Source: an uncultured Planctomycetales bacterium (GTDB lineage Bacteria > Omnitrophota > Gorgyraeia > Gygaellales > Profunditerraquicolaceae). Taken from it: a stretch of DNA of 64,000 bases. The notes beneath the pieces were generated by a model. The model saw nothing but the letters and a program-made list of their open reading frames with translations. It did not search any database and had not been told where the DNA came from. Within the stretch, counting starts at the first letter, position 1; every line of letters begins with the position of its first letter. Of the stretch, positions 17,866-41,901 are shown one piece after another. Where the stretch lies: assembly GCA_964542785.1 (NCBI GenBank), contig CAZIUK010000001.1, positions 332,701 through 396,700 of the forward strand. The letters are read 5' to 3'. The translations under genes and the position numbers were made by a program.

Positions 17866-19016
17866 TAGCCGGTAATTTAAAGAACGAGATTAAAAGCGTT
17901 GATCTGTTCATTACCGAAAAGTGCAACATGAAGTGCGATTACTGTTTTCATCCAAAGACCGGGGCTGTGCTTTCGGTTGAGCAAGGCAAAAAGATACTCG
18001 ATCGGTTGAAACAGTTAAGTCCGGAGTCAATGCAGATCACTTTCTTCGGGGGAGAGCCGTTGCTTTATCCGAAGACGGTTTTGGAGCTTGCGGAATACGC
18101 ACGCAATCTCTGGCCACCGGATGATAAGGGTCGCCACACTTCGACCTTTTCGATCTCAACAAACGGAACGTATTTTGATGAGGATGTTTTTAAGAGGTTT
18201 GCCGAACTTGGCATGGCGGTTCAGGTCAGCTGTGATGGCGATGAGATCACGCATACCGAATACCGCCACGGAGATTACAACCTTATCGTTGAGAATATGA
18301 AGAAGATATTAAAGATTAAGCCGGACATGAGCGTGCGTATGACTTTTACGCCCAAGACTGTCGGCAGGCTTTCGATCAATATCAAGTATCTTCATCAGGA
18401 GATCGGCGTTACGAAGATCATGCACCACGCTGTTATCGAAGATGACTGGACGGATGACGCTGTTGAGCAGTACGCCTATCAGCTTGGTCAGGTTTACCAT
18501 TACAGGCGTTACTGCAAGAGGCAGGATATCCCGCTTCATATCGCCTTCATTGATAAACCGCTCAAGATTGTAAACGACGAATTGCCGCCTGAGAAGGAGT
18601 TTTGCCAAGCCGGTAAAAGCTACATCGCCGTGCTGGATAATGGCGACGTTTATCCCTGCCACAGAGCCGCAAGCGCAAGGATCTTTAAGCTGGGCAACAT
18701 CTTCAACGAGGTGCCGTTTATCAGGGGGATATTCTTGAATATAGATAAGGAGTACACCGGCTGTGCGAAGCACTGCAAGCACGCAAAAACCTGCCACAGT
18801 TGCGTCATTACGCATTACAAAGTCAATCAGGAGCTTACGGTTCCTGTGACGAAGTATTGCAAGATATGTGCTGTTGAAAGCGATCAGGCTTTGGGTTTCC
18901 TGCCGGTTGAGCTTGCGGATCGGCGGGAACGTATGCTTTTCAAGATCGGGCAGGTTTTGGTTGATGTCGCAAAGCAAGGTGAGGAAATTTTACAGGCATT
19001 AAAAAAGGAGGACTGA
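17847..19016 (+). CDS. Radical SAM/SPASM-domain maturase 3
   Basis: The N-terminal motif is CNMKCDYC. The C-terminal Cys clusters are CQAG...PCHR...CAKHCKHAKTCHSC. Its start overlaps rSAM-2. Confidence 0.75.
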   Translation: MSEQELVAGNLKNEIKSVDLFITEKCNMKCDYCFHPKTGAVLSVEQGKKILDRLKQLSPESMQITFFGGEPLLYPKTVLELAEYARNLWPPDDKGRHTSTFSISTNGTYFDEDVFKRFAELGMAVQVSCDGDEITHTEYRHGDYNLIVENMKKILKIKPDMSVRMTFTPKTVGRLSINIKYLHQEIGVTKIMHHAVIEDDWTDDAVEQYAYQLGQVYHYRRYCKRQDIPLHIAFIDKPLKIVNDELPPEKEFCQAGKSYIAVLDNGDVYPCHRAASARIFKLGNIFNEVPFIRGIFLNIDKEYTGCAKHCKHAKTCHSCVITHYKVNQELTVPVTKYCKICAVESDQALGFLPVELADRRERMLFKIGQVLVDVAKQGEEILQALKKED

Positions 19017-19321: not shown

Positions 19322-19873
19322 ATGCATCTTAATCATAAAAAATCAAGCAGGATTGTAAACAGGATCACTGAGATAAATACCACTGGTGGTTTGCCGAAAA
19401 CAGGTCAGATGATGTCTTGGTATCCGTTTGATGACGGTTATTATCAAATCGGTCACCCTATTAACTGGGGTCAAAGATTCGTTGATAACGGAAACGGAAC
19501 CGTGACCGATATGGCTACTGGGTTGATTTGGGTTAAAGATCCAGCGGCCGCTGGTTTTGGATCTCCAATGCAATGGTATAACGCCCTTGATGCGTGCGAG
19601 AATTTGAACTATGCGGGTTACAGCGATTGGCGATTGCCGAATGTTTTTGAAATAGCATCAATTAATGATTATGGAAGATACGATCCTGCCTTAGATACTT
19701 CCTATTTTGCTCCGTGTCCAGATCAATGGGGCGTTTGGTGGTCATCGACTATTTGCGCTCCATGGAGTGACGGGGCTTGGGCTGTGTATGCCTATGACGG
19801 TTATTTAACTACGTACGGAATAATCTGGGGTGATCAGTGTTATGTTCGCCCTGTCCGTGGCGGTCAATCATAA
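19322..19873 (+). CDS. DUF1566 (Lcl C-terminal-like) domain protein; possible tail fibre tip or adhesin module
   Basis: It contains the motifs TGLIWVKD...DWRLPN..E...YWSST, which are characteristic of DUF1566. Confidence 0.5.
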   Translation: MHLNHKKSSRIVNRITEINTTGGLPKTGQMMSWYPFDDGYYQIGHPINWGQRFVDNGNGTVTDMATGLIWVKDPAAAGFGSPMQWYNALDACENLNYAGYSDWRLPNVFEIASINDYGRYDPALDTSYFAPCPDQWGVWWSSTICAPWSDGAWAVYAYDGYLTTYGIIWGDQCYVRPVRGGQS

Positions 19874-20953: not shown

Positions 20954-21399
20954 AGGGAGAGGTCATGAATGTAAGGGATTTCATAGAAAAGGCGATGAGT
21001 TTAAATGATCATGATTGTGAGCGGGAAGTATGGCATCTTGCCGGACCCGCAAATCGAAAGTTCAGGCAGGAAGTCATGAGCGAGCTTTCAGGGGAGAAGG
21101 TGCCTTTGTCAAAATGCGGGGTTAATGCGATCAGCGAGAAGATCAAGGCTGTAAAGATGGCGAACATCGCACCCAATGATCAGGGCGAGCCGGAAGTCAA
21201 ATTATCCCGCCATTCGTTGATGATGATTGCCAAGGAGCGCGGGATTAAGAATTTTCGTGTTTTAAACAAGGAAGAGCTGATGCATGTCACGGCTGATGGG
21301 ATCGCTCAGCAGGAAATTGACGCGCTTGTGGCTGGTGCGGTTGCCAGATGGAAGTCCGGCTGGGGAAAGGGAAAGGCAAAAAATGAAAGTCAAAGCTGA
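20950..21399 (+). CDS. Hypothetical protein
   Basis: 149 aa. An ATGA overlap joins it to the upstream gene. Confidence 0.35.
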   Translation: MKGEVMNVRDFIEKAMSLNDHDCEREVWHLAGPANRKFRQEVMSELSGEKVPLSKCGVNAISEKIKAVKMANIAPNDQGEPEVKLSRHSLMMIAKERGIKNFRVLNKEELMHVTADGIAQQEIDALVAGAVARWKSGWGKGKAKNESQS

Positions 21400-21694
21400 A
21401 ATTGAATTGAAGGTTGAAATGGGTGGGGTATCCCATGACGGCACCGGCTGTCAGGGATACCTGCCGGAAGGCACACGTTATGAAGATATTGTCCGGGTTT
21501 TCGGCGCGTCTCAGTTAGGCAATTCACTGGACAATAAGATCAAGGCGGAATGGGTTGGCAGGATTAACGGCCTTGTCTTTACGATTTATGACTACAAATC
21601 AAATCTGGATCCGGAGCGCAACACCGATTGGCATATCGGGGGTAAGCACAAGTTTGTCGCGGAGCTGGTGAATCTATATTTTGTTTCCCTCTAA
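21383..21694 (+). CDS. Hypothetical protein
   Basis: 103 aa from MKVKAE. It is the last gene before an AT-rich intergenic region. Confidence 0.3.
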   Translation: MKVKAEIELKVEMGGVSHDGTGCQGYLPEGTRYEDIVRVFGASQLGNSLDNKIKAEWVGRINGLVFTIYDYKSNLDPERNTDWHIGGKHKFVAELVNLYFVSL

Positions 21695-27957: not shown

Positions 27958-29046
27958 ATGGCAAAAATTGTTTGCTTGGATGAAGAAGAGAAGAAGTCTA
28001 AACTTGTTAGCTTTCTTCAGAAAGCAATTCAATCTGCACATATAAATTTCTTGATCGGATCGGGATGCTCTTCACATGTTATCCCAACTCTTGGAAATAT
28101 TGAAGAGAAGATTCAGGGATTAATAGATGAAAATAAGCCAAATGATGCAGAGGTTGAAACTTTTAATTATTTGGGGACTTTTCTTGATAGTTACGAGAAG
28201 TTGAATGATTTGGCTGACGCGTCAAGCAAGAAGGTTGTTGATGAATATCTTTTGTTTCTTAGACTTATAACGGAATGTCTTTCAAATAGAGAAAACAATA
28301 TTTTACCTAAACAGGCCACAGTGTTTTCTACAAACTATGATCTTTTTGTTGAAAAGGCATTCGAGCAATTGGAGATGCAAGCAAGGCTTAGTGATGGATT
28401 CTCAAGAGTGCCTTTATTGACGGGACGTTTTTTGTTTTCTCCTGCTGAATTTTTTAACTCGGTATTGAACAATGGGAATATTTATAACTATCAAGTTCAA
28501 ATACCATCGATAAACCTAATTAAGCTTCATGGATCGCTTAGTTGGCAATCACAAGATAAAAATATTTTATTTTCTACGGAATGGCTAGATGAAGCTATTG
28601 CAGAACGCAAAAAAGCTTTGGATGGAAATAATCTTGAAAGCAAAACAAAATTAAATTCGAGATTTGCGGTAGTTCTTCCGAAAAAGGATAAGTTCAAGGA
28701 TTCGATTCTTAATCAGATTTACTATGATTTATTAAGAATTTATGCAAATCAATTGGATAGAGAGAACACTCTGCTAATTGTTATCGGATTTTCTTTCTCA
28801 GATGAGCATATTCTTGAAATTACGAAAAGAGCTTTAAGGAATCCAACTTTAAAGCTTGTAATATTTTGCCATGAGTCAAAAGGAGTGGATGTTTTTAAAG
28901 ATAAATTTTTAACTTTTAATAATGTGGATATTGTTCATTCCGAGAAATCCGATGTTTCATTTTCTAAAGCCTGTCTTTTTATTCAGGATGTTTTGCAAAT
29001 GAAAAACATGAGGTGCGAAAGGAGTTCAACTCAAGATGATGGATGA
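27958..29046 (+). CDS. SIR2-family (SIR2_2-like) NADase protein of a SIR2-HerA antiphage system
   Basis: It carries the motifs FLIGSGCSSHVIP and KLHGSLSW typical of SIR2_2. It is coupled to the HerA-like ATPase gene by an ATGATGGATGA overlap. Confidence 0.7.
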   Translation: MAKIVCLDEEEKKSKLVSFLQKAIQSAHINFLIGSGCSSHVIPTLGNIEEKIQGLIDENKPNDAEVETFNYLGTFLDSYEKLNDLADASSKKVVDEYLLFLRLITECLSNRENNILPKQATVFSTNYDLFVEKAFEQLEMQARLSDGFSRVPLLTGRFLFSPAEFFNSVLNNGNIYNYQVQIPSINLIKLHGSLSWQSQDKNILFSTEWLDEAIAERKKALDGNNLESKTKLNSRFAVVLPKKDKFKDSILNQIYYDLLRIYANQLDRENTLLIVIGFSFSDEHILEITKRALRNPTLKLVIFCHESKGVDVFKDKFLTFNNVDIVHSEKSDVSFSKACLFIQDVLQMKNMRCERSSTQDDG

Positions 29047-30919
29047 TTTGTTAAGAAAATCGATTCTTCGGGTTGGAGAAGTTTCTGGAATAGAGGGTCG
29101 AAAGATTTTTGTAAAAGTAGATAAGGACAAAAACTCTTCCGATCTTTTATTAGATGGCGATGTTATTAAGAATGTGGCTGTGGGTGCCTATATTGAAATA
29201 AGAAAAGGCTTTATTAGTATTATTGGGAAAATTGATGGAGAGAAGCTTAGGGAAGATGTGTCAGAGAAGTTCATTCGCGATTATAAACAATTAAACAAGA
29301 ACGACAGGTCATTAACTGTGAGCCTTGTTGGGTATATCGGAATGGATGGTCGTTTTGAAGGAGGGATTAAAGAATTACCCTTGATTGGGAATGAGGCGTT
29401 TATCTTGACTGAACGCAAGCTTCATAGTGTGCATAACTTGCTAAAGGAAGATCTGTCTTTGAAAGTTTGTATTGCGAAAACAGATGTTGAAGAAATTCCT
29501 GTAAGCTTACCAGTAGATGGAATTTTCAATAGCCATATTGCAATTTTTGGAAATACAGGTAGTGGAAAATCGAATACTTTAGCTTCATTATATCAGGGGT
29601 TGTTTGCTGAATGCTCAAAAAGAAGGGATTTTGTCGAGAAATCTCGGTTTTTATTTTTTGACTTTAATGGTGAGTATGTAAAGGAACATTGTTTAACTGA
29701 AAACAAAAAACCCTACAATTTAAGAACTCAAGACGGTGCAGGTGATAAAATTCCTCTTTCATTTGAGGATTTTTTTGATAGCGAAACTTTATCTATTTTA
29801 ACCGAGGCAACGGATAAAACCCAGAAGCCGTTCTTGAAAAGATCGCTGAGGTTTTTTAAGAATGCAAAGTCCAAAGATAATTTTGGTGCTTATTTTAAGG
29901 GCATTCTTCAGAATAAGATAAAAAGCATTTTAAGAATGGCCAATAAAGATGTCGCTTATAAATTGCTTGATTATATGCGGGAAATTTTATCGGGCTTTAT
30001 TGAAGAAGATAATGATCTGTTTGGGGATATTGAGTTCCATGGGCTAAATAAAACATTTAAAAGACTCGATGCGGAAATTTATTTTAATAGTAATCCGGAT
30101 GCTATTGAAAATACGAAATCATATATGGCGGTAGTTTCGATGGAAGAGGATGCAATAACATCAATTCCATGTTTAGGGCAGTTTTATATCTTTCTGCACT
30201 TGCAACTTATTGATGATCTTTTAACTTACAAAGTCCAAAATGACCATATCTATCCGCTTATCAATAGATTCAAGGCGAAGCAGACAAGCATTACGCGGAC
30301 TTTTGAAATCGTAGACAACCCTGATTTTTGGAAGAATTTTAATTGTGTTGTTATTAATTTACATGATGCAAACTTGGATATGAAGAAGACCCTTCCATTA
30401 TTGATCGCAAAGAGTTTGTATGATGAGCATAAGAAGGAACAGAATAAAAAATCTTTAAATATCATAATTGATGAGGCGCATAATATTCTTTCAAAAACAT
30501 CTTTTCGCGAGACGGAAGACTGGAAAGATTATCGTCTAGAGACCTTTGAAGAGATTATTAAGGAAGGTCGTAAGTTTGGTGTTTTTCTGACAATATCGAG
30601 TCAGAGACCAAATGATATTTCTGAAACCATTATTTCCCAGGCACACAACTATTTTATACATCAATTAATCAATGAGAGGGATTTGCGCACAATAGGAAAT
30701 GCTGTTTCTTATATTGATAAGATAACTGAAGAAGCAATTCCAACATTGCCAGTTGGAACATGCGTGTTTAGTGGCATTGCTACTCCGATGCCTTTGAAGA
30801 TAAAGATTGAAGAATTATCAGAGGCGAATAAGCCCGATAGTAAAACTTTGAAATTTAAGGATATCGTTGGAGATGTTGTTGAAGAAGACAATTTGGACGA
30901 TTGGATAAATCAATTATAG
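29036..30919 (+). CDS. HerA/FtsK-like ATPase partner of the SIR2-HerA system
   Basis: It has Walker A (FGNTGSGKSNT), Walker B (IIIDEAHNIL) and the C-terminal SSQRP motif. Confidence 0.75.
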   Translation: MMDDLLRKSILRVGEVSGIEGRKIFVKVDKDKNSSDLLLDGDVIKNVAVGAYIEIRKGFISIIGKIDGEKLREDVSEKFIRDYKQLNKNDRSLTVSLVGYIGMDGRFEGGIKELPLIGNEAFILTERKLHSVHNLLKEDLSLKVCIAKTDVEEIPVSLPVDGIFNSHIAIFGNTGSGKSNTLASLYQGLFAECSKRRDFVEKSRFLFFDFNGEYVKEHCLTENKKPYNLRTQDGAGDKIPLSFEDFFDSETLSILTEATDKTQKPFLKRSLRFFKNAKSKDNFGAYFKGILQNKIKSILRMANKDVAYKLLDYMREILSGFIEEDNDLFGDIEFHGLNKTFKRLDAEIYFNSNPDAIENTKSYMAVVSMEEDAITSIPCLGQFYIFLHLQLIDDLLTYKVQNDHIYPLINRFKAKQTSITRTFEIVDNPDFWKNFNCVVINLHDANLDMKKTLPLLIAKSLYDEHKKEQNKKSLNIIIDEAHNILSKTSFRETEDWKDYRLETFEEIIKEGRKFGVFLTISSQRPNDISETIISQAHNYFIHQLINERDLRTIGNAVSYIDKITEEAIPTLPVGTCVFSGIATPMPLKIKIEELSEANKPDSKTLKFKDIVGDVVEEDNLDDWINQL

Positions 30920-30931
30920 TTTGGGTAGGAA

Positions 30932-31741
30932 ATGATTAAAAAATTCATCCGAAAACTTATTGATGTGGAAATTAAATTAGGCTTTTTGCATATTCCGGCC
31001 AAGGGCATTGAACTGATGCCGGATAAGGATGGAAAGATTCCTGTTGTGGTAGATGGCAAAGAGCATGAGTTGACTTATAACGCAAAGCATAAGCGCGTCT
31101 TTGGTCTTGTTCGCTGGTATAAGGCACATAAAACAAAAGTCGGCGATGAAGTAGTTTTTGAAAAAGGCGGATCAAAATACACTCTTTCTTTTAAAACAAA
31201 AGTTAAGGAATCACCGCTTGAAGAGGCTGAGACGCTTTTGGATATATCTGGGCTGTCATCTCAAGCCAAGGGCGATATTGTCGAGGAGCGGATCAAGGAG
31301 TTGATCGTTCTTCAGGGGCAGGGGCTGTTAAGTGTTTATCGGCCGGTTACGGATACTCAGGGCGTTGATCTGGTTGTCACAAAGGCTGGGATGTATCAGC
31401 CGATATTTTTGCAGATCAAGGGACGGTTTAATGTGGAGAAGCGCGGGTATTTCTTGATGGATATCAACAAGAAGACCTTTACTCCGCATCATTCATATTT
31501 TGTGGTTGGGGCGTATTTTAATGCGCAGAAGATGGAAATTGATGAAAACGTTTTGCTGGTGCCGAGCCTTGAGGTAGAGAAGGGAACGGTTGTTAAAAGC
31601 AAGCGTGGCGAGAGCTTGAGGATTCAAAATCACTTATCACCAGATTCGCAAGGGCGATGGGCTCCGTTTTTGATTAAGAAAATAGATTTGGCAAATAAGT
31701 TGCTTGAGAAGTTTGAGGAAATGGCGAGGTATATTAAGTAA
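30932..31741 (+). CDS. Hypothetical protein with a PD-(D/E)xK-like motif (GVDLVV...LQIKG); possible nuclease
   Basis: 269 aa. It lies 12 nt downstream of the HerA-like gene. The motif is only weakly supported. Confidence 0.35.
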   Translation: MIKKFIRKLIDVEIKLGFLHIPAKGIELMPDKDGKIPVVVDGKEHELTYNAKHKRVFGLVRWYKAHKTKVGDEVVFEKGGSKYTLSFKTKVKESPLEEAETLLDISGLSSQAKGDIVEERIKELIVLQGQGLLSVYRPVTDTQGVDLVVTKAGMYQPIFLQIKGRFNVEKRGYFLMDINKKTFTPHHSYFVVGAYFNAQKMEIDENVLLVPSLEVEKGTVVKSKRGESLRIQNHLSPDSQGRWAPFLIKKIDLANKLLEKFEEMARYIK

Positions 31742-31752
31742 AGGATTTAAGT

Positions 31753-32850
31753 ATGCGGACTTTTTTTGTTTCACTAATTATGGTCGTAATGATGGCAACG
31801 GGTGCAGTTGCCTCGCAGGATGTCCGGTATGCCGGATTTGCTTTTGTCGGCAATTTTGAGGATATTCCCAACCGCTTTCATTATGCGCATGCTTTGAATA
31901 GCCAAAAAGACGGTGACGGTCGATCGGTCTTTGATAAAGAGGTGCAGAAGTTTTTTCAGGAGAATGGGAGCAAGATGTCCGGAATTAATCTCTTAATGGG
32001 CGAGCAGTCGGATACTAAGATTGCGGTGGCTTTGGGATTAACACGGGAAAACATCAGCGTGGTCAAGATTGATGATGTATTTAAGGTTGTGGTTAATTTG
32101 TCCTGTAATTTGACATTCCTGAATTTTGACGGGATGAATGTTTTGGCGACTTATCCGATTTATCTGGAATTCATTGATGTTCGAAGGGAAGAGCCTTCGG
32201 AGGAATATAAGATGGATTTAGTGAAGCGTTTATTTTTCGCTGATGATTTCAGCGTCTTAAAGATTTTAAAGGATAGGATCGGGGATGTTCGGCTGAGTAG
32301 CGGGTCTGTTTTAACTATGAAGATTCAGAATGTGATCATCGAGGATGAAGCCAAGGATATTTTGAAAGAATATACGAATGACTTCGGTGCGTTTGAAAGC
32401 ACATTGGCTCAGCGGTTTTCTGATACATTATCCAGTCAATTAGGTGTATCATTGTTGCCCTATGCTAAAGATTATCTTGGCGGACGGATGTCGCTTGTAT
32501 TTTCGGATGCTAGAACGCAGGACTTTCAGATTCCGGATTCCAGCTACGGTATTGATTTGATTTTAAGAAAAATGACGAAAGGGCTGTATAAGGAAGGCAT
32601 TGGGGATGATGCGTATCTTTACGGCATTTATACGACAGTCAAGGTTTACGCTCCGGCCTTGGAGAGGACGTATTGGGATCAAAAGGTTAAATATGGAGCG
32701 ATTAAAAATATACCCAAGCTTCAGGTGACGACAGATGACTATGCTGTTTATGATGAGATCACCGGGGCTGTGATGGGGGAAATTATTAATGAAATTCAGA
32801 AGGATAAACAATTCTACAAGGAGGTCGTAAAGCGATGCTTAAACAAATGA
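31753..32850 (+). CDS. Secreted protein (signal peptide), CsgG-like/periplasmic
   Basis: The N-terminal signal peptide is MRTFFVSLIMVVMMATGAVAS. Confidence 0.4.
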   Translation: MRTFFVSLIMVVMMATGAVASQDVRYAGFAFVGNFEDIPNRFHYAHALNSQKDGDGRSVFDKEVQKFFQENGSKMSGINLLMGEQSDTKIAVALGLTRENISVVKIDDVFKVVVNLSCNLTFLNFDGMNVLATYPIYLEFIDVRREEPSEEYKMDLVKRLFFADDFSVLKILKDRIGDVRLSSGSVLTMKIQNVIIEDEAKDILKEYTNDFGAFESTLAQRFSDTLSSQLGVSLLPYAKDYLGGRMSLVFSDARTQDFQIPDSSYGIDLILRKMTKGLYKEGIGDDAYLYGIYTTVKVYAPALERTYWDQKVKYGAIKNIPKLQVTTDDYAVYDEITGAVMGEIINEIQKDKQFYKEVVKRCLNK

Positions 32851-33887
32851 CAATTTTTTTAATGGTGGGGCTCTTTTTAATGAGTGCTCCAATGGCCCAT
32901 GCCGAGTACAAAAAAGTACAGGTTATTGGGAAAGTCGAAACAAAGAGGAAGAATCCGAAAGTTGATGAACAAAGGATGGCGATCCAAGACGCGAAGAAAA
33001 AGGCTCTGGATAAATATATTTCCGGGCTTGATTCTCAACGCGTACGCATTCTGAACAATGTGATTGATGAGATGCGTCAAAATATCGATATCTATGTTCC
33101 GGAGACTGTTTCTTTAGATGATGGCAATTGGAATGAGGGCGTCTGGTATATTGGCGTAGAAGCGCAAGTTAATGAAGCACAAATTGAGGAGATCGTTAAT
33201 AAATACGCGCAAGACGCTATTCAGGAGCAGGGCGAGTCTTATTTGTCGTTTGTTTTTGTCGCGCGAGAAGCGGATACAGTCAGAAAGTTTGATGGTAAGA
33301 AGACGGAGAGGACTGTTGAGTCTGAAACTATTAATGCTTCTGAGTCAGAAGACGGTTATTCGGGACAGAATGAAAAAGTAACAGAAAAGATAACAGGCGG
33401 ATCCGTTGAGAAGAAATCGGATCGGATCTCATATCGCAGTTATATTCCTGAGGGTATTGGAAGCAAGGTTACCGAGGTCTTTAATAAGGCGGAGTTTGAT
33501 GTGGTCGAGCCGTTTGAAGCTGATATCAACACAGATAGTTTTGTGAATGATTTTGTTGAAAACGATGAGATATCGAATGAAACCAAGAAGTCAGCAGTAG
33601 AAGCCGCTAAATCAGCCGGATTGAATTATCTTGCTGTGGCGACTCTTGATGTCGGAGAACAGGATGTTGATCAAGCGACTGGACTTCAGAAGGTTTATGT
33701 TCGGGTGAATGGGTATGTTTGGGATTTAAACGGCAAGTTTACTAAGAAGATATGTAGTGTCGGGCCGGTTCAATATAGTGGAACAGGCGAGAATGCTGTT
33801 GTAGCGAAAACAAACGCGTTAATAAATGCGGCCTCAACAGCGGCTAAAGACTTAGTGGATCAAATGAGATTTAAACAATCAAAATAG
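32835..33887 (+). CDS. Secreted protein, CsgG-like segment
   Basis: It has a signal peptide and the motif NYLAVATLDVGEQD, which resembles the CsgG-family 'ADYLLxG' region. Confidence 0.4.
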   Translation: MLKQMTIFLMVGLFLMSAPMAHAEYKKVQVIGKVETKRKNPKVDEQRMAIQDAKKKALDKYISGLDSQRVRILNNVIDEMRQNIDIYVPETVSLDDGNWNEGVWYIGVEAQVNEAQIEEIVNKYAQDAIQEQGESYLSFVFVAREADTVRKFDGKKTERTVESETINASESEDGYSGQNEKVTEKITGGSVEKKSDRISYRSYIPEGIGSKVTEVFNKAEFDVVEPFEADINTDSFVNDFVENDEISNETKKSAVEAAKSAGLNYLAVATLDVGEQDVDQATGLQKVYVRVNGYVWDLNGKFTKKICSVGPVQYSGTGENAVVAKTNALINAASTAAKDLVDQMRFKQSK

Positions 33888-33914
33888 TTCTTTAAAAATG
33901 AAAGGGAAGGAAAA

Positions 33915-34601
33915 ATGAAAAACAAAATCTTATTAGCTGTGAGTTTGGTGGCTTTGATGTCAGTAGGGGTTAACCCTGCTTTTGCTCAATTCGGAAAGCT
34001 GAAGGGTATGTTGCCGGGAGGGGGAGCTTCCGCGGGGGCTTCTTCATCGGCTGATTTAAGTTCATCCAAAGATAACGCGGTCAATGTTTATTTGGCATCA
34101 ACGCAAGAATTGAGCATGAGTCTTAAAAAAGCGGGTGAAGCTTTTGGTGTTAAAGAAGAAGTTTTGAAAAAGCTGGCTGTTGTTGATTCGCTGAAAGAAG
34201 GAAACATTACGGATAAAGACTTGGAAAAAGCTAGACAGTCGTCAGAAGAGGCGCAGGCGATTATTAAAGAGAAAATGATGGAAACAACAGCACCGAGTGT
34301 TGAATCAAAAGCATTGATGGCAGAGAGCATTCTTCATTTGGTTGAGGGGATTAATAAGGAAAAAGACTTAATCGGCGAGGTTCAGTCTTTGTCTTCTCAA
34401 GCGCAGTCTGCTGTGAGTAGCGCGTCACCTATGGAAATGATGAAATTAAAAGGCATTGCCGGAACAGCATTAACTTTGGTCAAAGCTGTGCCGATGGATA
34501 TCAAATTGTCAAAAGACATTTTGAGTGCGTATTTGGAATACGCAAAGGCCAATAATATTAAGGCGCCGAAGAACGCCTCTAACCTTTTAGAAGGGGAATA
34601 A
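33915..34601 (+). CDS. Secreted Ala/Ser/Glu-rich coiled-coil protein
   Basis: It has a signal peptide ending AFAQ and low sequence complexity. Confidence 0.4.
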   Translation: MKNKILLAVSLVALMSVGVNPAFAQFGKLKGMLPGGGASAGASSSADLSSSKDNAVNVYLASTQELSMSLKKAGEAFGVKEEVLKKLAVVDSLKEGNITDKDLEKARQSSEEAQAIIKEKMMETTAPSVESKALMAESILHLVEGINKEKDLIGEVQSLSSQAQSAVSSASPMEMMKLKGIAGTALTLVKAVPMDIKLSKDILSAYLEYAKANNIKAPKNASNLLEGE

Positions 34602-34602
34602 T

Positions 34603-35658
34603 ATGATATTCAAAAAAACACTTACGGGCTTCGCGCTTGTGTGTTTGCTTGTGCTCTCGGGGGCTGGTGCTGTATGGTCGCAGGCTCCCGTTGACTCAGG
34701 AGATCAGGCAAACCTGACGGTTGCCATTTTCTCAAGGAATAAGACAACTCATTCTGAATATGAGAAGTATATCGATATGCTTCGAAGCGGGTTAACAGCA
34801 AAATTGTCTGATAAATTCGTGGTGATTGATAAGGATGACGTTGTTAATACTTTTGAGGAGGAGAAAGTTAAAGAAACAACAAAAGCCGAGGATCTGTGGA
34901 GTTATTTGCAGATGCTTTCCGAGGTTGATCAGAACGCGAAGGCGGCTGATAGAGAAGCAAACGTTGATAAGCGATCCATCGAGGAAAAGTCATCCGCTTT
35001 GCGTATCGCTCAATCAGTGGGGGCGAAGTATTTCTTGATCGCCGATGTCGAGGATATTGTCAGCAATAATATTCAGGACGCTGCATATGGTCAGCAGGTC
35101 AATGATCTGCGGATTACGGCGGATGTTGCAGTCAAGATTCTTGATGGCGTTAAAGGCGGGACGATATTGGCAGAAAATGTTCGGGTTGAGAAAAGACTTC
35201 ATGGGGATGAGAACACCGTATTTACTACGGCAGATATCACACAGGCTTTGCCAGCATTGATGAAGCAGGCATCATCCGATGTGGCTGAGAAGTTTTTGTC
35301 CAACATCGACAAGGTTCGTTCATTTAAGAGTGACGCCGTTGAGGTCAAGTTTAAAATTAAAACCAACGTCAAGGATGCGGTTGTTGAGCTTGATGGCGTT
35401 GGAATTGGGTCAGCCCCGGGTAATTTCCAGGCACTTAGCGGTGTTCACCGCCTGCGGGTTACAAAGGACGGATATCGGGCGTTTGAGCGTGATGTCAATA
35501 TCACCGCGAACGCTGAATTCTCTGTCTCTCTGGAAGAAACGAGCGAGGCTCGGGATTCTCAATTAAAGAAAGAAAAGGCAGACGCTGATAATTATTCCAC
35601 CAAAAAGAAGGCGGATGCTGAATATAAACACGGACCCAGTAAGTCCGTTGATTGGTAA
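34603..35658 (+). CDS. Secreted protein with a C-terminal PEGA domain
   Basis: It has a signal peptide and the PEGA-like motif VELDGVGIGSAPGNFQALSGVHRLRVTKDGYRAFERDV. Confidence 0.5.
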   Translation: MIFKKTLTGFALVCLLVLSGAGAVWSQAPVDSGDQANLTVAIFSRNKTTHSEYEKYIDMLRSGLTAKLSDKFVVIDKDDVVNTFEEEKVKETTKAEDLWSYLQMLSEVDQNAKAADREANVDKRSIEEKSSALRIAQSVGAKYFLIADVEDIVSNNIQDAAYGQQVNDLRITADVAVKILDGVKGGTILAENVRVEKRLHGDENTVFTTADITQALPALMKQASSDVAEKFLSNIDKVRSFKSDAVEVKFKIKTNVKDAVVELDGVGIGSAPGNFQALSGVHRLRVTKDGYRAFERDVNITANAEFSVSLEETSEARDSQLKKEKADADNYSTKKKADAEYKHGPSKSVDW

Positions 35659-36565
35659 GGGAGGGAATATGTTTAAACATTTAATCATTTTATTTTCGCT
35701 CGTAGCTGTCCTTTCCAGTCCGGCTTACGCGGAAAAGATGAAGATTGGCTTTGTTGAAGAGGTCGACGCGACTGTTGAGGTTCCTGATGTGGTTAGACAG
35801 AATCTTAAAGAAGCGGTTAGAAAGAATTTTGTCGAGTCAGGGAAATTTGACGTGGTCGATCGCACTCAAAAAGATGTGGATCGTTTATTTGAGGAGATGA
35901 AATTTTCGGATGAACGTATCGGTCGAGTTGATGTGAATGACGATAAGAAAGCCGAATACGGAAAGATGTCCGGTATGGAGTATATGGTGCTGGTGAACAT
36001 CAATGACTTTTTCTCAGGGGGGGAGCCATCAAAGTTTCAGCAGACCGATCCGGGCAATAAGCCTGTTGTTCGCGTGGGAGCGAATGTCAGATTGTTGAAT
36101 ACATCAACAGGGAAAATTCATCTGGAAAAGAGTTTGTCCGCTAAACGAATTTCGAGGAAGGCTGTTTCCGGAGGCGACTTGACCAAGAAAGCTGTTGAAA
36201 TGCTGGCGGAAAAAGTTTCATTAGCTGTGATGGATGAAATTTATCCGATCATGATCATCCAAAAGACAGGCAATAGCGCGTTCATTAATCGAGGCAAAGA
36301 CAGCGCGATTACTGCGGGTCAGGAAATGAATGTTTTTGTGGCTGATCAGGTGCTTGATGAGGGAACGGGCGAGATGCTTGATCTGATGAAGGAAGTAGGG
36401 AAGGTTAAGGTCAAGAACGTATCCGAAAAAACAGCTGAGGTTGAAATCGTAGAGGACTTCGGCGTTGATAAGGGATGCATCCTTAAGCCGGTTGATCAAG
36501 AAGCTGTCATGGCTGAAGACATAGCCGAGACGATTGAGCAGAAAAAGAACGCAGAGGATTGGTGA
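35615..36565 (+). CDS. CsgG-family (curli-transport-like) secreted or lipoprotein
   Basis: It has a signal peptide. The region FVESGKFDVVDRTQKDVDRLFEE...AEYGKMSGMEYMVLVNINDF matches the CsgG family core. Confidence 0.5.
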   Translation: MLNINTDPVSPLIGKGGNMFKHLIILFSLVAVLSSPAYAEKMKIGFVEEVDATVEVPDVVRQNLKEAVRKNFVESGKFDVVDRTQKDVDRLFEEMKFSDERIGRVDVNDDKKAEYGKMSGMEYMVLVNINDFFSGGEPSKFQQTDPGNKPVVRVGANVRLLNTSTGKIHLEKSLSAKRISRKAVSGGDLTKKAVEMLAEKVSLAVMDEIYPIMIIQKTGNSAFINRGKDSAITAGQEMNVFVADQVLDEGTGEMLDLMKEVGKVKVKNVSEKTAEVEIVEDFGVDKGCILKPVDQEAVMAEDIAETIEQKKNAEDW

Positions 36566-36590: not shown

Positions 36591-37496
36591 ATGGAACTCG
36601 TAGCTCATTCGGATTTTTTAATCCACTGGACGGGAGAGGATATTGATAGAAATTATGATCCGAATTGGTGGAATAGTAAGGTAAATCGACCAAATAAAGA
36701 AATAGTTGCGCCTTATATTGAACGTCTTAAGTTTCTTTTAAGGTTTGGTTTATGGATGAAAGATGGCAAAGGTTTTATAGAATTTCAAGGAAAGACTATT
36801 AAGAGGCCTCAATTTGCTCGAACTTGTTTTACTGAGTTGAAGCTCTCCCAAGCCCGAGAGCATGCTATAAAGTTTGGAAGGCTGGGAATCGGTTTTAAAA
36901 GAATGTTTGTTTGCGATCGGATGGGGTTGCCTATGGTTTACTTTCGTCCGGAAAAGCATAACTGGTTTATTTCGCCTTACCTCAAAAATAATATCGATCA
37001 AAAAGATGGTAAAAGTATTCCATTGGTTAATGAATACTGGGCTTGTTTTTTGAAATCAATGGATGAGAAGCATACACCAGGAGAATTATTGCAGTATAAA
37101 CAATTCAACGAATCTGAGTGGAGAATTATTTATTCAGAAGAAATTAAACAAAAGTTGATAGATTTGAAGTTAGCAAGAATTTGTGATTATTTTAAGCGCC
37201 CCGAAGAGATTAATGATGCTGAATTCCAGAAATATCTTTCGAGAATGGATCCTGAAAGGAAATTGAGGTATTTGGTGCCTTTAGATGGGGGTTCTGAGGT
37301 TTGGTTTGCGATGATTATTTATCCAAATTTGCCAACAAAAGTATATGCTGAAAAAGATCCAGAAATAAGGGGTGAAATTGATAGGCTTAAGCCAGTAGTT
37401 GATGAAAAGGATTGGAAAAGATTAAACGGCAGTGCATCATATGAGAAGTTTAATAGAGTTATTGAAATGGATTTAGATGCTTGCCGCAATTTTTAG
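36591..37496 (+). CDS. Hypothetical AT-rich cargo protein, possibly defence/abortive-infection-related
   Basis: 301 aa. Its G+C is clearly lower than that of the upstream genes, and it lies at the element edge. Confidence 0.3.
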   Translation: MELVAHSDFLIHWTGEDIDRNYDPNWWNSKVNRPNKEIVAPYIERLKFLLRFGLWMKDGKGFIEFQGKTIKRPQFARTCFTELKLSQAREHAIKFGRLGIGFKRMFVCDRMGLPMVYFRPEKHNWFISPYLKNNIDQKDGKSIPLVNEYWACFLKSMDEKHTPGELLQYKQFNESEWRIIYSEEIKQKLIDLKLARICDYFKRPEEINDAEFQKYLSRMDPERKLRYLVPLDGGSEVWFAMIIYPNLPTKVYAEKDPEIRGEIDRLKPVVDEKDWKRLNGSASYEKFNRVIEMDLDACRNF

Positions 37497-37886
37497 ATTT
37501 TCTGTGGAATCGGCATTTAGTTGGGCTTGTTCAAATTCTTTGAGTTTTTCGGTTATACGATTCGGGCATGGATTTGAGGCAATTTGGTAGAGCGGTTTGA
37601 CGGACATGCGGTGGAGGATTTGAGGATCGTCGCATTCTTTGTATTTCTCGATGAACTCTTTGGGGAGGTTATCGAGAATTGTCATGAGTTTGGCGATGCG
37701 TTTGCGGTGGACGTTGATTTTTAAAGAAGCGGACAGGCAGTTTTCATTCGGATGGTCGGTCATATAAGATTTGACCATCATAGCTTGTTTGAGTATATTA
37801 ACTGGAGGCGTTTTGGGCGGTGGTTCAGGGAATGGCTGGTCAAGTTTGACCTCAAGTTGCACTGTTCGCCTGCGATGAAATTTCAT
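37473..37886 (-). CDS. Hypothetical protein (the only minus-strand ORF not nested in another gene)
   Basis: 137 aa. No clear RBS is present. It overlaps the upstream gene by 24 nt and may be spurious. Confidence 0.3.
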   Translation of the reverse strand: MKFHRRRTVQLEVKLDQPFPEPPPKTPPVNILKQAMMVKSYMTDHPNENCLSASLKINVHRKRIAKLMTILDNLPKEFIEKYKECDDPQILHRMSVKPLYQIASNPCPNRITEKLKEFEQAQLNADSTENLKIAASI

Positions 37887-37996: not shown

Positions 37997-38797
37997 ATGA
38001 ATGAAATAGCGATTAAAATTAAGAATTTATCAAAACATTTTGGTAAAGTCATTGCAGTAGACAATATTTCTTTTGAAGTAGGTAGTGCCGAGGTTTTTGG
38101 CTTTTTAGGCCCTAATGGCGCAGGAAAAACTACTACTATCAATATTCTTTGCACCCTCTTAAAACCTACGGCCGGAGAGGTAATAGTGAATGGATTTAAT
38201 GTGGTAAGTTCTCCTAATGAAGTAAGAAGATCCTTTGGTATTATTTTTCAGGATCCTAGCCTTGATGAGCGGCTCACTGCTTATGAAAACCTTAATTTTC
38301 ATGGAATGATCTATCATTTGCCGTCAAAGGCAAGGAAGGCGCGTATTAAAGAAGTGTTGGATATGGTGGGTTTATATTCAAGAAAGGATACTATTGTACG
38401 CACATTCTCAGGTGGCATGAAGAGAAGATTAGAGATTGCCCGCGGCCTTATGCATAATCCTAGAATCCTATTTTTGGACGAGCCGACTGTAGGGTTAGAC
38501 CCTCAGACAAGAAATTACATCTGGGATTATATAATTGAGCTTTCGCAAAAGGAGGGAATTACAGTATTTCTTTCTACACATTATATGGACGAAGCAGAAA
38601 TATGCCAACGCGTAGGAATTATTGATCATGGTAAAATTATTGACTTGGATGCACCAGGGGTATTAAAAAATAAATATAAGGTATCTTCTCTTCACGATGT
38701 CTTTTTAGAAGCCACAGGCCATGATATACGCGAAGAGAAACCGGATGAGAAAGAAGAACTAGGGCTATTTTTACGTGCAAGGAGCAAATTAAGATAA
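37997..38797 (+). CDS. ABC transporter ATP-binding protein (ABC-2 exporter type)
   Basis: It has Walker A (GPNGAGKTTT), the ABC signature (SGGMKRRL) and Walker B (ILFLDEPT). Confidence 0.85.
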   Translation: MNEIAIKIKNLSKHFGKVIAVDNISFEVGSAEVFGFLGPNGAGKTTTINILCTLLKPTAGEVIVNGFNVVSSPNEVRRSFGIIFQDPSLDERLTAYENLNFHGMIYHLPSKARKARIKEVLDMVGLYSRKDTIVRTFSGGMKRRLEIARGLMHNPRILFLDEPTVGLDPQTRNYIWDYIIELSQKEGITVFLSTHYMDEAEICQRVGIIDHGKIIDLDAPGVLKNKYKVSSLHDVFLEATGHDIREEKPDEKEELGLFLRARSKLR

Positions 38798-38800
38798 CCT

Positions 38801-39544
38801 ATGGATTTTGTTGCCATTCGTATGATTTGGGTAAGGGACCTTATCCGTCATTACAGGGATAGGGTGAGGCTTTTAGGCTCTGTAACCCGGCCGATACTCT
38901 GGCTTTTGATTATGGGCACTGGTTTAAGGGCTGCATTTGACGTACACGGGATATCATATACGCACTTTATATTTCCCGGGATTATTGCGATGAACCTGAT
39001 ATTTGCGGCAATGATTTCAACTTTCAGTATTATCTGGGATAGGGAATTTGGTTTCTTACGAGAAATTCTTGTTGCTCCTATACCGCGTAGTTCAATTGTG
39101 CTTGGTAAGGCCTTAAGTGGTTCAACGGTTGCGTTTACTGAAGGACTCTTTGTTTTAGTATTTGCTCCGTTTATAAAAATACACATCCCCTTGCTTAACC
39201 TATTTATGCTTTTGCCGTTAATGTTTCTTATTGCCTTTGTTTGTACAAGCATGGGGATTGTGATTGCTGCACGGATGACTTCTTTTGAGGGTTTTGGCGT
39301 GATTTCTAATTTTGTAATTATGCCGATGTTTTTCTTAAGTGGGGCGATGTTTCCCGTAGATAACCTTCCTCATTGGGTAACTTTTATTATTAGGATTAAC
39401 CCTCTAACTTACGGAGTGGATCTTTTAAGATGGGATATCCTTGGGATAAAAGTATTCGCGCTTTATATGGATTTTCTATTTCTTGCGATTTTTGCTTTCA
39501 TAATGCTAGGAATAGGAGTTTTTGAATTTAGTAAGACAAATTAA
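38801..39544 (+). CDS. ABC-2 family transporter permease
   Basis: It is a six-TM hydrophobic protein following the ATPase gene. Confidence 0.75.
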   Translation: MDFVAIRMIWVRDLIRHYRDRVRLLGSVTRPILWLLIMGTGLRAAFDVHGISYTHFIFPGIIAMNLIFAAMISTFSIIWDREFGFLREILVAPIPRSSIVLGKALSGSTVAFTEGLFVLVFAPFIKIHIPLLNLFMLLPLMFLIAFVCTSMGIVIAARMTSFEGFGVISNFVIMPMFFLSGAMFPVDNLPHWVTFIIRINPLTYGVDLLRWDILGIKVFALYMDFLFLAIFAFIMLGIGVFEFSKTN

Positions 39545-39568
39545 GTGAGGAAATAATTTCTCTAAAAG

Positions 39569-40234
39569 ATGGTCAAGCTTTCGCGCAGTAAGTTAGAATT
39601 GTTTTTAGATTGCCCGCGTTGTTTTTGGTTAGAGGTAAATAAGAGGATTAAACGGCCGCCGCCGTATCCTTATACAATAAACTCTGCCGTAGATAGCCTA
39701 TTAAAAAAAGAGTTTGATTTACACCGTCAGGAAGGAACACCTCACTACCTTATTAAGAAGTATAATATTAATGCTATCCCTTATAAGTGCAAAGAGATTG
39801 ATGTTTGGCGGCATAACTTTACCGGAATACAGTTTTATCATCAGCGTACGGATTTTTTAGTCTTTGGCGCTATAGATGATATTTGGGTTAATCCGCAAAG
39901 TGAGTTGATAGTGGTTGATTATAAGGCTACGGGTGCAAATGAGTATAAGATTTATGATAGTTATAAGCGCCAGATGGAGGTTTATCAGTGGCTTTTTCTT
40001 CAAAACGGGTATAAAGTTGCTAAGTTTGGATACTTTCTCTTTGCCAAGGTAAATAAAAACGCTGGTTTCTTCGAAGGCAAGCTTTCTTTTGATTTATACT
40101 TAGAACCCCAAGAAGGCAATACTACCTGGGTGGAAGGAGAGCTTATAAATGCCAAAAAAACCCTTGATAGCCCTATCCCTGAATCTTCTGCAGAATGCCC
40201 TTACTGCCAGTTTGTCAAGAATAGTAAGATTTAG
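39569..40234 (+). CDS. PD-(D/E)xK nuclease, Cas4/RecB-like with four Cys (CPRC...CPYC)
   Basis: It has the catalytic motif GAIDDIW...IVVDYK, with N-terminal and C-terminal Cys pairs that flank the nuclease core. Confidence 0.6.
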   Translation: MVKLSRSKLELFLDCPRCFWLEVNKRIKRPPPYPYTINSAVDSLLKKEFDLHRQEGTPHYLIKKYNINAIPYKCKEIDVWRHNFTGIQFYHQRTDFLVFGAIDDIWVNPQSELIVVDYKATGANEYKIYDSYKRQMEVYQWLFLQNGYKVAKFGYFLFAKVNKNAGFFEGKLSFDLYLEPQEGNTTWVEGELINAKKTLDSPIPESSAECPYCQFVKNSKI

Positions 40235-40319
40235 AATTGTATCTTGACTTTAATTAAGAGTGGTTAGATAATAATAAAAATCATAGGAAAAGCATATAAA
40301 TTTTATTTTTTTTTAAGCG

Positions 40320-41123
40320 ATGGATAAGATAATAATTAAGGTTAATAGTTTATCAAAAAACTTTGGCTTAGTTCAGGCTGTTAAAGATATCTCTTTTGAG
40401 GTCAAAGAAAAAGAGATATTTGCTTTTTTAGGGCCTAATGGAGCTGGAAAAACTACAACCATAAGGATGCTTATAACCTTACTTGCCCCTGTAAGCGGAG
40501 ACGCATTGATCAACGGTAATAGTATAATTCATTATCCGGCAAGGGTGCGTAAGGCAATTGGCTATGTGCCACAGATGATTTCAGTTGACGGATCGCTTAC
40601 TGTTTGGGAGAACCTGATGCTTATGGCGCATCTTTATGATGTCCCCTATCGTGAGTATAAAAAGCGGATAAAAGAGATGCTTGGGTTTATTGATTTGGAG
40701 GAATATTCTAAATCACTTGTTAGGACTCTTTCAGGAGGAATGATACGAAAATTAGAAATAGCTCAGGCGATGTTGCATCGTCCAGTTGTCCTCTTTTTAG
40801 ATGAGCCTACTACTGGGCTTGACCCTATTGCCAAGCGCCATATCTGGGAGCATCTCTTAGAGTTGCGCGATACCTTTGGCACAACAATATTTTTCTCCAC
40901 CCACAATATGGAAGAGGCAGAGGATGTGACAGATAGGGTTGCTATTATGAATAACGGAGAGGTTGCGGCTATAGGTGCAATTCCGAATTTAAAAGAAAAG
41001 ACAAATAAAAAGGATGCCACGCTTGAAGATGTCTTTATATTTTTTACCGGTAGCCAACTTCAAACAAACGGAGATTTTCAGGAAATAAAAAGAACAAGGC
41101 TGATACAAAATAGGTTAGCTTAA
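40320..41123 (+). CDS. ABC transporter ATP-binding protein (second copy)
   Basis: It has GPNGAGKTTT, SGGMIRKL and LFLDEPT motifs. Confidence 0.85.
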   Translation: MDKIIIKVNSLSKNFGLVQAVKDISFEVKEKEIFAFLGPNGAGKTTTIRMLITLLAPVSGDALINGNSIIHYPARVRKAIGYVPQMISVDGSLTVWENLMLMAHLYDVPYREYKKRIKEMLGFIDLEEYSKSLVRTLSGGMIRKLEIAQAMLHRPVVLFLDEPTTGLDPIAKRHIWEHLLELRDTFGTTIFFSTHNMEEAEDVTDRVAIMNNGEVAAIGAIPNLKEKTNKKDATLEDVFIFFTGSQLQTNGDFQEIKRTRLIQNRLA

Positions 41124-41124
41124 T

Positions 41125-41901
41125 ATGTTAAAATATATCTTACAGGTTATTAGAAAGACTTGGGTAATGGGAGAGATGGAGGTTAGAAAGCTCCTCCACG
41201 ACCCTACTGAGCTTATTACCCGTACAGTTCAGCCTATACTTTGGTTGGGTATTTTTGGAGAGGCATTAAGCAATATCAGGGCGATACCGACAGAGGGATA
41301 CACTTACTTACAGTTTATCACTCCAGGTATCCTTACTCAATCCATAACCTTTGTCTCAATATTCTATGGACTCTCAGTTATCTGGGAGCGGGATATGGGA
41401 TTGCTTCAGAAGATTTTAGTTACCCCCACGCCACGCTTGGCTTTAGTTTGGGGGAAGATGTTTTCAGCCGCAGTGCGGGGGATAAGTCAAGCTGTGATCA
41501 TCTATATTTTTACCATTATCTTACGAATCCGCCTTATAATTACCCCTTTTTCAATTATTGGGGTAATTCTTATCACTCTACTTGGTGCAGGGTTTTTTAC
41601 CGGATTATCTATGATTATTGCCTCTATAGTAAAGACTCGTGAACGTTTTATGGGGATAGGGCAAGTCATTACGCTACCCTTGTTTTTTGCCTCAAACGCT
41701 ATCTATCCAATTTCAATAATGCCTTCTTGGCTTCAGGTAGTTGCCAAGATAAACCCTCTTTCTTATATGGTGGATGGTTTACGGGTTATGCTGGTTACCG
41801 GGGATATGTCACGTTTGCCTTATAATATCTGTATTCTTCTAATAGCTACAACTATCATATCCTTTATAAGCGCTTATATGTATCCTAAGGTTATTGAATA
41901 A
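41125..41901 (+). CDS. ABC-2 family transporter permease (second copy)
   Basis: It is a hydrophobic multi-TM protein. Confidence 0.75.
   Translation: MLKYILQVIRKTWVMGEMEVRKLLHDPTELITRTVQPILWLGIFGEALSNIRAIPTEGYTYLQFITPGILTQSITFVSIFYGLSVIWERDMGLLQKILVTPTPRLALVWGKMFSAAVRGISQAVIIYIFTIILRIRLIITPFSIIGVILITLLGAGFFTGLSMIIASIVKTRERFMGIGQVITLPLFFASNAIYPISIMPSWLQVVAKINPLSYMVDGLRVMLVTGDMSRLPYNICILLIATTIISFISAYMYPKVIE

Follow-up and report, generated by a model that had tools for sequence, protein, structure and literature searches.

Proteins with the CsgG/PelC/LptE/FlgT fold are found at the periplasmic face of the outer membrane, where they often form rings or plugs. CsgG itself is a lipoprotein that assembles into a nonamer with a 36-stranded barrel built from two hairpins per subunit (PMC4551309), and the SHS2 proteins FlgP, FlgT and Lpp20 are ring-forming, outer-membrane-associated scaffolds (PMC12222027). 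In hotspots of the P2/P4 kind, a fixed position in temperate phages is occupied by unrelated anti-phage systems that replace one another (PMC9122126). This study describes a cassette of five genes that brings such folds to such a position, located at 31753-36565 of a 64,000-nucleotide (nt) stretch of contig CAZIUK010000001.1 (assembly GCA_964542785.1, positions 332,701 to 396,700 of the forward strand), hereafter the window, whose numbering is used throughout. The analysis points to five exported proteins, four of which carry the CsgG-type fold, as members of a wide and unannotated operon family, placed here at one end of a prophage, where its cargo is variable. The genes, taken for proteins 1-4 from the list of open reading frames (ORFs), and the predicted domains, which for proteins 3, 4 and 5 come from sequence only, are as follows.

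31753-32850, plus strand: protein 1 (365 aa), with a signal peptide followed by two tandem alpha/beta domains of CsgG/PelC/LptE/FlgT-M type.
32835-33887, plus strand: protein 2 (350 aa), with a signal peptide, an SHS2-like N-domain (residues ~25-130), a linker (~151-195) and a TolB-N/CsgG/PelC-like C-domain.
33915-34601, plus strand: protein 3 (228 aa), with a signal peptide, a Gly/Ala/Ser-rich stretch, a helical heptad-like body and an acidic C-terminus.
34603-35658, plus strand: protein 4 (351 aa), with a signal peptide, an LpoB/CsgG-like N-domain, a PEGA beta-sandwich (251-311), a Lys/Glu-rich tail and a terminal Asp-Trp.
35669-36565, plus strand: protein 5 (298 aa; alternative upstream ATG at 35615), with a signal peptide, a CsgG/LpoB/FlgT-M-like domain, an FlgT_C-like beta-barrel, a charged tail and a terminal Asp-Trp.

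Genes 1 and 2 overlap by 16 nt, the later gaps are 27, 1 and 10 nt, and a Shine-Dalgarno-like purine run precedes every one of the five starts; this tight spacing and these purine-rich runs together indicate that the five genes form one operon. Since all homologues of protein 5 begin at the Met encoded at 35669 (MFKHL...), and since this start is preceded by a strong AGGGAGGGA ribosome-binding site, protein 5 was taken as 35669-36565, and 35669 is likely to be its true start. In each protein, the only 19-residue window with a Kyte-Doolittle mean above 1.6 lies at the extreme N-terminus and is followed by an AxA-type site (AVA/SQ, AHA/EY, AFA/QF, VWS/QA and AYA/EK for proteins 1-5, respectively). 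The same windows revealed no transmembrane anchor beyond this single hydrophobic segment. A lipobox, which the initial annotation had raised, was absent from all five signal regions inspected; the one Cys in the signal region of protein 4 has a non-lipobox context and is missing from its homologues. All five products are thus predicted to have cleavable signal peptides, to lack a membrane anchor and to be exported by the Sec route.

The five-gene block recurs intact, with 50-75% identity, on more than 10 contigs of independent origin from metagenomes or metagenome-assembled genomes (MAGs), among them Omnitrophota MAGs or metagenome contigs (our loci L010, L011, L012, L014, L019 and L024) and an Endomicrobiaceae MAG (L016); as judged from these contigs, such a block is far beyond chance. 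More distant operons keep proteins 1-3. Hidden Markov models (HMMs) of these proteins recovered the counterparts with E values between 1e-50 and 1e-100 (proteins 1 and 2) or between 3e-18 and 5e-6 (protein 3). Among 1.84 billion representatives, protein 1 has 533 clusters at E <= 1e-3 and 169 at 1e-30, and the clusters of the core span Omnitrophota, Elusimicrobiota, Cloacimonadota, Burkholderiales and others. Pfam and NCBIfam gave nothing significant for proteins 1-3, no Pfam domain was present on any of 109 homologues of protein 2, and the source annotation of family proteins reads 'hypothetical' or, wrongly, 'DNA-binding protein Fis'. By these comparisons, proteins 1-3 are the conserved core of an operon family that extends well beyond this block and has no annotation.

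The exchangeable partners of this core are proteins 4 and 5, marked by a flexible charged tail that ends in Asp-Trp. Both tails are Lys/Glu-rich, and no other ORF of the window closes in this way. D297 and W298 of protein 5 are invariant in 18 homologues, the terminus of protein 4 is DW or NW in seven of eight, and across all loci, 30 of the 37 ORFs of at least 150 aa with a terminal Trp end in [DN]W. In three distant operons (L033, L036/L037 and L044), the partner is a protein of 429-487 aa with an LPP20-like domain, a CsgG Pfam match of 41-47 bits and an FlgT_C-like domain, ending in DDW, QDW or DDW, respectively. An LPP20-family protein accompanies the core in L029 and L034, and the core stands without any partner in L040 and L042. 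The fourth gene of Cupriavidus metallidurans CH34 encodes a lipoprotein (LLVAC/G) ending in DANW, and the fourth-gene product of L044 has a classical lipobox (LSAC). Among cultured Burkholderiales, the CH34 core operon lies on the chromid (L045, 7721-12058; NC_007974.2, ~2,457,090-2,461,430), and a Caballeronia plasmid holds another core (L046, 7856-10833) with all three genes labelled 'hypothetical', a 'cell wall anchor protein' gene after them and adjoining integrases.

The FlgT-like partner is often followed by a DUF6844 protein with an acidic residue and Phe at its terminus; those at L033 11218-12666 and L036 11216-12544 end in EEDF and KDSF, respectively. This DUF6844 partner is homologous to Francisella FTT_1539c (PDB 4QVR, E 3e-17), whose LVS counterpart, FTL_0572, is listed as a DUF6844 protein. 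Judging from locus tags, FTL_0572 is a near neighbour of omp26 (FTL_0569), so that an operon of this family may also exist in Francisella.

The folds were obtained by structure prediction for proteins 1 and 2, and by hhalign and Pfam for the N-domains of proteins 4 and 5. The model of protein 1 (predicted local distance difference test, pLDDT, 83.7; predicted template modelling score, pTM, 0.80) shows one secondary-structure pattern occurring twice, and its fold matches were FlgT (12.2), Cj1090c (11.6), CsgG (11.3), HpaA (11.0) and PelC (10.7), followed by PqiC (10.2), LptE (10.1), LpoB (8.9) and TraT (8.9); Cys118 and Cys362 are conserved. The model of protein 2, built from a 42-sequence alignment (pLDDT 78.9; 86-96 within the domains), consists of a beta-alpha-beta-beta N-domain, a disordered linker (151-195) and an alpha/beta C-domain. 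The linker is acidic and Ser-rich, and varies from ~40 to more than 130 residues across homologues. Protein 2 and a 96%-identical relative are labelled 'DNA-binding protein Fis' by JGI, a label that is incompatible with the predicted signal peptide and the modelled fold. Protein 3 contains 25.4% Ala+Ser, the sole matches of its profile among PDB sequences were heptad-repeat helical constructs (coiled-coil spike constructs), and its alignment shows conservation in the manner of a structural subunit, with amyloid-type repeats absent.

PEGA (PF08308) was detected at residues 251-311 of protein 4 with 43.3 bits against a gathering score of 20.8 (E 3.4e-11), and is kept in its homologues. FlgT_C (PF16538) was detected at residues 219-280 of protein 5 with 27.0 bits, which is exactly the gathering score of 27, and is precomputed in nearly all homologues. 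Both proteins match LpoB weakly (15.3 bits for protein 4), and hhalign showed their N-domains to be homologous (84%, E 7e-6, 132 columns). Local hhalign among all cassette domain pairs found no other relation, and structure prediction was needed to relate proteins 1 and 2 to that fold. In all, the alpha/beta fold of CsgG, PelC, LptE, PqiC, TolB-N, FlgT-M and TraT occurs five times in the operon, twice in protein 1 and once each in proteins 2, 4 and 5, together with an SHS2 domain (protein 2), a PEGA sandwich (protein 4) and an FlgT_C barrel (protein 5).

Part of the initial annotation was confirmed by these data: the five successive secreted proteins, the PEGA domain in the fourth and the Ala/Ser-rich coiled coil in the third were all recovered, and the 'xYLxxA/G' segments noted there are real, representing the central beta-strand of the CsgG/TolB-N-type fold in the model of protein 2 and in the hhalign alignment of proteins 4 and 5. 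The higher-GC element was likewise confirmed, with a GC content of 0.42-0.46 in the cassette against 0.33-0.35 in the flanking defence genes upstream and 0.37-0.39 in the host-like genes downstream; the cassette is close to the phage structural part of the window (0.46-0.48).

Among the closest known systems is FlgT of the Vibrio H-ring (PDB 3W1E, 8Z5N); the architecture of protein 5, a TolB-N-like domain with FlgT_C, is nearer to the M and C domains of FlgT than to CsgG. FlgT has three domains in one polypeptide, whereas the cassette splits them over separate proteins: protein 5 has no N-domain, so that FlgT_N (SHS2) and FlgT_M are not joined in it, and a pair of SHS2 and TolB-N-like domains is found in protein 2 instead. 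The sequence similarity to FlgT is at or below family thresholds (FlgT_M Pfam was sub-threshold, 17 bits, in a distant relative only), and the cassette adds protein 1 with its tandem domains, a helical protein (protein 3), a PEGA protein and [D/N]W tails. PelC, LptE, PqiC and LpoB are outer-membrane lipoproteins with the partners PelB, LptD, PqiB and PBP1b, respectively, whereas the cassette proteins are not lipidated, judging from their sequences, and no such partner is encoded nearby. TraT of F-like plasmids consists of one lipoprotein, which forms a decamer inserted in the outer membrane, unlike the five soluble proteins of the cassette. The TraT surface-exclusion family has no sequence relationship to the cassette, for which exclusion is a proposal only.

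The genomic position of the cassette provided a further line of evidence. Phage tail proteins occupy 1-14 kb of the window, and the last gene conserved across the phage family is a border gene, directly after which the cargo hotspot begins. Relatives of the border-gene product were found in 38 IMG/VR contigs, at up to 92% identity, and ~29 of these contigs are syntenic with the window at 6-21.7 kb. The cargo that follows varies from phage to phage, and all ten large ORFs tested downstream of the border, in seven contigs, are PADLOC defence proteins (type I, II and III restriction-modification (RM), BREX BrxC and PglX, HKD+Snf2, and a helicase). This position is therefore a defence hotspot of the P2/P4 kind. 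It differs from the P2/P4 hotspots in that the phage family is another one, the hosts are probably Omnitrophota, and the cassette has no known defence homologue. The features around the cassette are as follows.

21284-21694, plus strand: border gene, the last gene conserved across the phage family.
22041-27892, plus strand: type I RM genes hsdM/S/R (Pfam).
27958-29046, plus strand: SIR2 (PADLOC 2.5e-91).
29036-30919, plus strand: HerA (PADLOC 1.1e-203).
30932-31741, plus strand: 269-aa ORF, separated by 12 nt from HerA and by 11 nt from the gene for protein 1.
36591-37496, plus strand: AbiGi-like protein (PADLOC E 1.4e-7), directly downstream of the cassette.
37473-37886, minus strand: 137-aa ORF at the right edge of the element, overlapping the AbiGi-like gene convergently.

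The location between defence genes and the element boundary, as first annotated, was confirmed, since the cassette lies in the variable cargo region at the prophage end. Searches of Pfam, PADLOC and PHROGs gave no match for the 269-aa ORF, which L010 and L011 lack; rather than belonging to the cassette, it may be the third member of this SIR2-HerA system. The 137-aa ORF (BLASTP match to residues 592-665 of the L019 serine recombinase, which has 679 aa; 74 aa aligned with 34% identity) resembles only the C-terminal helix-turn-helix (HTH)-like domain of a large serine recombinase, the catalytic part of which is missing here. A homologue lies at the same relative position in L010, and the ORF marks the same element edge as the L019 recombinase; host-like ABC transporters follow downstream. 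Because this edge lacks a catalytic recombinase, the prophage could be a degraded one or could depend on a different integrase encoded beyond the window. No tRNA or attachment (att) site was found in the window.

Related phages carry RM, BREX, Thoeris-type and SIR2 systems at the hotspot position. In L010 and L011, the border-gene homologue is followed by a divergent minus-strand HTH gene and then by the cassette as the first cargo. In L019, the order is border gene, a pAgo-associated-like gene, ThsB (1e-80), a metallo-beta-lactamase (MBL)-fold protein, the cassette and a minus-strand large serine recombinase; there, the cassette lies inside the prophage.

Three side observations concern the remainder of the element and its edge. 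Between the tail genes and the hotspot lie three successive radical-SAM genes (15566-19016), the third with a SPASM domain, which recur at 64-96% identity in many IMG/VR relatives of the phage and may represent a phage-borne peptide- or cofactor-modifying set. An Lcl_C (DUF1566) protein (19322-19873), located before small conserved genes, is also kept in IMG/VR relatives. Just outside the element, a PD-(D/E)XK nuclease-family gene (39569-40234) lies between two ABC-transporter ATPase/permease pairs (37997-41901).

Elsewhere, the operon is found in diverse settings. Type I-E Cas genes, IS1595 and ZacA/ZacB lie beside it in L036/L037, SIR2/DUF499 lies beside it in L042, and a tyrosine integrase adjoins it in L038; in L016, L033, L034, L040 and L044, it lies among housekeeping genes. 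SIR2 and Schlafen-like genes flank the operon in L042 and also in L010, described above. A 5.3-kb segment, consisting of just the cassette with unrelated flanks, is shared at 96% identity between L016 (5758-11090) and L038 (8617-13925), and in L033 and L036 the GC content of the operon is 8-11 points under that of its flanks. The L016 and L038 contigs are both of Endomicrobiaceae type, and a 100-nt stretch at the right border of the cassette in L038 (13816-13911) recurs at L016 3802-3901 with 84% identity, ~2 kb upstream of the cassette there; this stretch could be a border repeat. The cassette and the distant three-gene cores occur without visible phage in other phyla. Since no IMG/VR relative of the prophage has it and it is present without phage elsewhere, the cassette behaves as mobile accessory DNA, neither phage core nor host core. 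The check suggested in the initial annotation, conservation of the block with the prophage in related genomes, was thus negative; of the refuting alternative given there, a host-core block found without the prophage, the occurrence without a prophage was borne out, but host-core status was not.

A periplasmic or outer-membrane assembly, as initially proposed, is the natural reading of exported products of which four of five carry the CsgG-superfamily fold. We propose that they most likely oligomerise into a ring or lattice, free of enzymes, at the periplasmic face of the outer membrane, in which the core would serve as a platform capturing the [D/N]W tails of partner proteins. By analogy with the fold relatives, we regard this structural part as probable. 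In a lysogen, such an assembly might impede further phages, either by capping or occluding a route of entry through the outer membrane or by obstructing the tail tip or the DNA on its way across the periplasm. No energy source or nuclease would be involved, and the logic would be analogous to that of lipoprotein-based exclusion (TraT, Llp and Cor). The envelope-remodelling or exclusion role raised in the initial annotation became more plausible insofar as the same position in ~29 related phages holds defence systems. Given the structure, exclusion is quite conceivable, if still short of probable; structure and phage exclusion taken jointly are a tentative proposal. It is rather doubtful that the cassette is the first recognised member of a new, wholly periplasmic class of exclusion against phages or other mobile genetic elements, working without enzyme, nucleotide signal or membrane motor, in which a core docks FlgT-like partners via [D/N]W and the resulting ring blocks phage genome entry.

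Several observations weigh against this proposal. None of the five proteins had a match in PADLOC-DB 2.0 (E <= 0.01) or in PHROGs. The cassette is absent from all syntenic IMG/VR contigs, though at least 14 of them extend 4-10 kb further; an IMG/VR scan with protein 1 and an INPHARED tblastn search with proteins 1 and 2 gave no match, and it is absent from BFVD, where a fold search with the protein 1 model returned weak matches only (TM <= 0.18). Prophage hotspots also carry non-defence morons, and the housekeeping setting of about half of the distant operons would fit a general envelope role equally. Oligomerisation and outer-membrane location are taken by analogy from fold relatives only. 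Finally, the five proteins showed neither lipidation nor a recognisable peptidoglycan- or membrane-binding module that could fix the complex to the outer membrane.

The main rival is a general envelope scaffold, namely a stabiliser, tether or periplasmic organiser that is carried as a fitness-conferring moron and has no anti-phage role, which we consider unlikely on the present evidence. It would account for the core operon standing among housekeeping genes in several phyla (L033, L034, L040 and L044) and for the absence of nuclease, NTPase and sensor domains from the five cassette proteins in Pfam and NCBIfam; moreover, the fold relatives LptE, LpoB, TolB-N, PqiC and HpaA are envelope-maintenance proteins, and the relation of the DUF6844 partner to Francisella FTT_1539c points in the same direction, FTT1539c and FTL_0572 each being named once in papers on outer-membrane vesicles and the capsule-like complex of Francisella. 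It is harder to reconcile with a cassette that is patchy, mobile and low in copy, that is 96% identical in unrelated contexts and differs in GC from its flanks in L033 and L036, and that in this phage family fills a position otherwise held by defence systems.

Less likely than the envelope scaffold is a role in export, of the curli-like (type VIII) or Pel-like kind, in which the cassette would supply the periplasmic section and direct a polymer or a protein, protein 3 being one candidate, to an outer-membrane channel encoded elsewhere. The initial annotation had called the last protein a clear CsgG-family member and had considered a curli-like secretion pore. Protein 5 does match PF03783 with 21.2 bits against a cut-off of 20.8, and its homologues carry a precomputed match, but the alignment is partial (profile positions 31-169 of 210). 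A search of PDB sequences with a profile of 18 homologues retrieved no CsgG, FlgT or LpoB, and returned a methyltransferase at E 0.3. In hhalign, the protein 5 family aligned with E. coli K-12 CsgG (NC_000913.3) over 17 residues with 32% probability, in which the beta-hairpin of protein 5 residues 135-151 (RVGANVRLLNTSTGKIH) corresponds to CsgG 171-187 (QIAVNLRVVNVSTGEIL).

The loops of protein 5 and CsgG were compared with this shared hairpin and the adjoining strand and helix as anchors. The first transmembrane hairpin of CsgG, of 25 residues, is replaced in protein 5 by 19 polar residues with two Pro, and the 36 CsgG residues that include the second hairpin are replaced by 18 basic residues; the exact hairpin ranges in CsgG are reportedly those of Goyal et al. 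2014. Both replacement stretches are polar. The signal peptide of protein 5, MFKHLIILFSLVAVLSSPAYA followed by EK, has no Cys, the sole Cys of the protein being at position 270, and the lipobox is absent in all 18 homologues. Proteins 1-4 had no Csg-family match (CsgE/CsgF or curlin) in Pfam or NCBIfam, and in the same databases no outer-membrane beta-barrel, glycosyltransferase or inner-membrane component was encoded by the operon.

Since lipid anchor, hairpins, CsgE/F and curlin are all absent, protein 5 shares the superfamily fold with CsgG without being a curli-type channel. It differs from the CsgG channel also in lacking the partners CsgA/B and in having an additional FlgT_C domain, it could not form the 36-stranded pore, and, on these sequence features, it is not functionally a CsgG. 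The structural-subunit-like conservation of protein 3, with no amyloid-type repeats, does not favour an exported polymer either. The assignment as a clear CsgG-family member was thus not confirmed, nor was the secretion pore supported, and the export route is regarded as improbable.

Isolated distant relatives of protein 5, with strong CsgG Pfam matches of 75-99 bits, were also observed at two loci. One (L018, 10004-10945) lies in a fliP...fliR-flhB-flhA cluster of an Eremiobacterota MAG and has a Gly-zipper insertion at the site of the first CsgG hairpin; the other locus (L017, 9968-11883), in a Hydrogenedentota MAG, has two tandem relatives behind a Ser/Thr kinase.

The FlgT-like architecture also suggests a motor part, namely an accessory ring comparable to the FlgT/FlgP H-ring and basal disk, in a flagellum or another motor that spans the envelope. 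This reading is likewise less likely than the envelope scaffold and is very improbable: flagellar genes were absent from the vicinity of the cassette, both in the window and in the more than 15 operon contexts examined, a location in a prophage cargo hotspot fits a motor part poorly, and core proteins 1-3 are absent from L018. Two further candidates were rejected: a lysis/spanin cassette, because neither an endolysin nor a holin is encoded, the genes are in the wrong place and their products are large and are also conserved outside phages, and an S-layer, because the proteins are small, multi-component and without anchoring domains.

The folds and the logic of the phage hotspot are already known, whereas Pfam, NCBIfam, PADLOC, PHROGs and the literature searched contain no description of the operon family, of its architecture or of its tag, and no functional description was found in the literature on DUF6844, on CsgG-like/LPP20/PEGA combinations or on FTT_1539c. 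Whatever the function, this study delineates a widespread operon family, so far unannotated, whose main building block is the ring-forming CsgG/PelC/LptE/FlgT fold, corrects two automatic labels (protein 5 as 'CsgG' and protein 2 as 'DNA-binding protein Fis'), identifies a conserved C-terminal Asp-Trp tag that is directly testable, and offers, in Cupriavidus metallidurans CH34, a host that can be cultured and has a homologous operon. To our knowledge, nearly all catalogued defence systems act in the cytoplasm or at the inner membrane, and envelope-level exclusion is known mainly from single small lipoproteins. An anti-phage role of the cassette, if demonstrated, could mean a new class of defence, and a multi-protein periplasmic scaffold in a defence hotspot would then extend the defence repertoire to a new compartment and a new mechanism.

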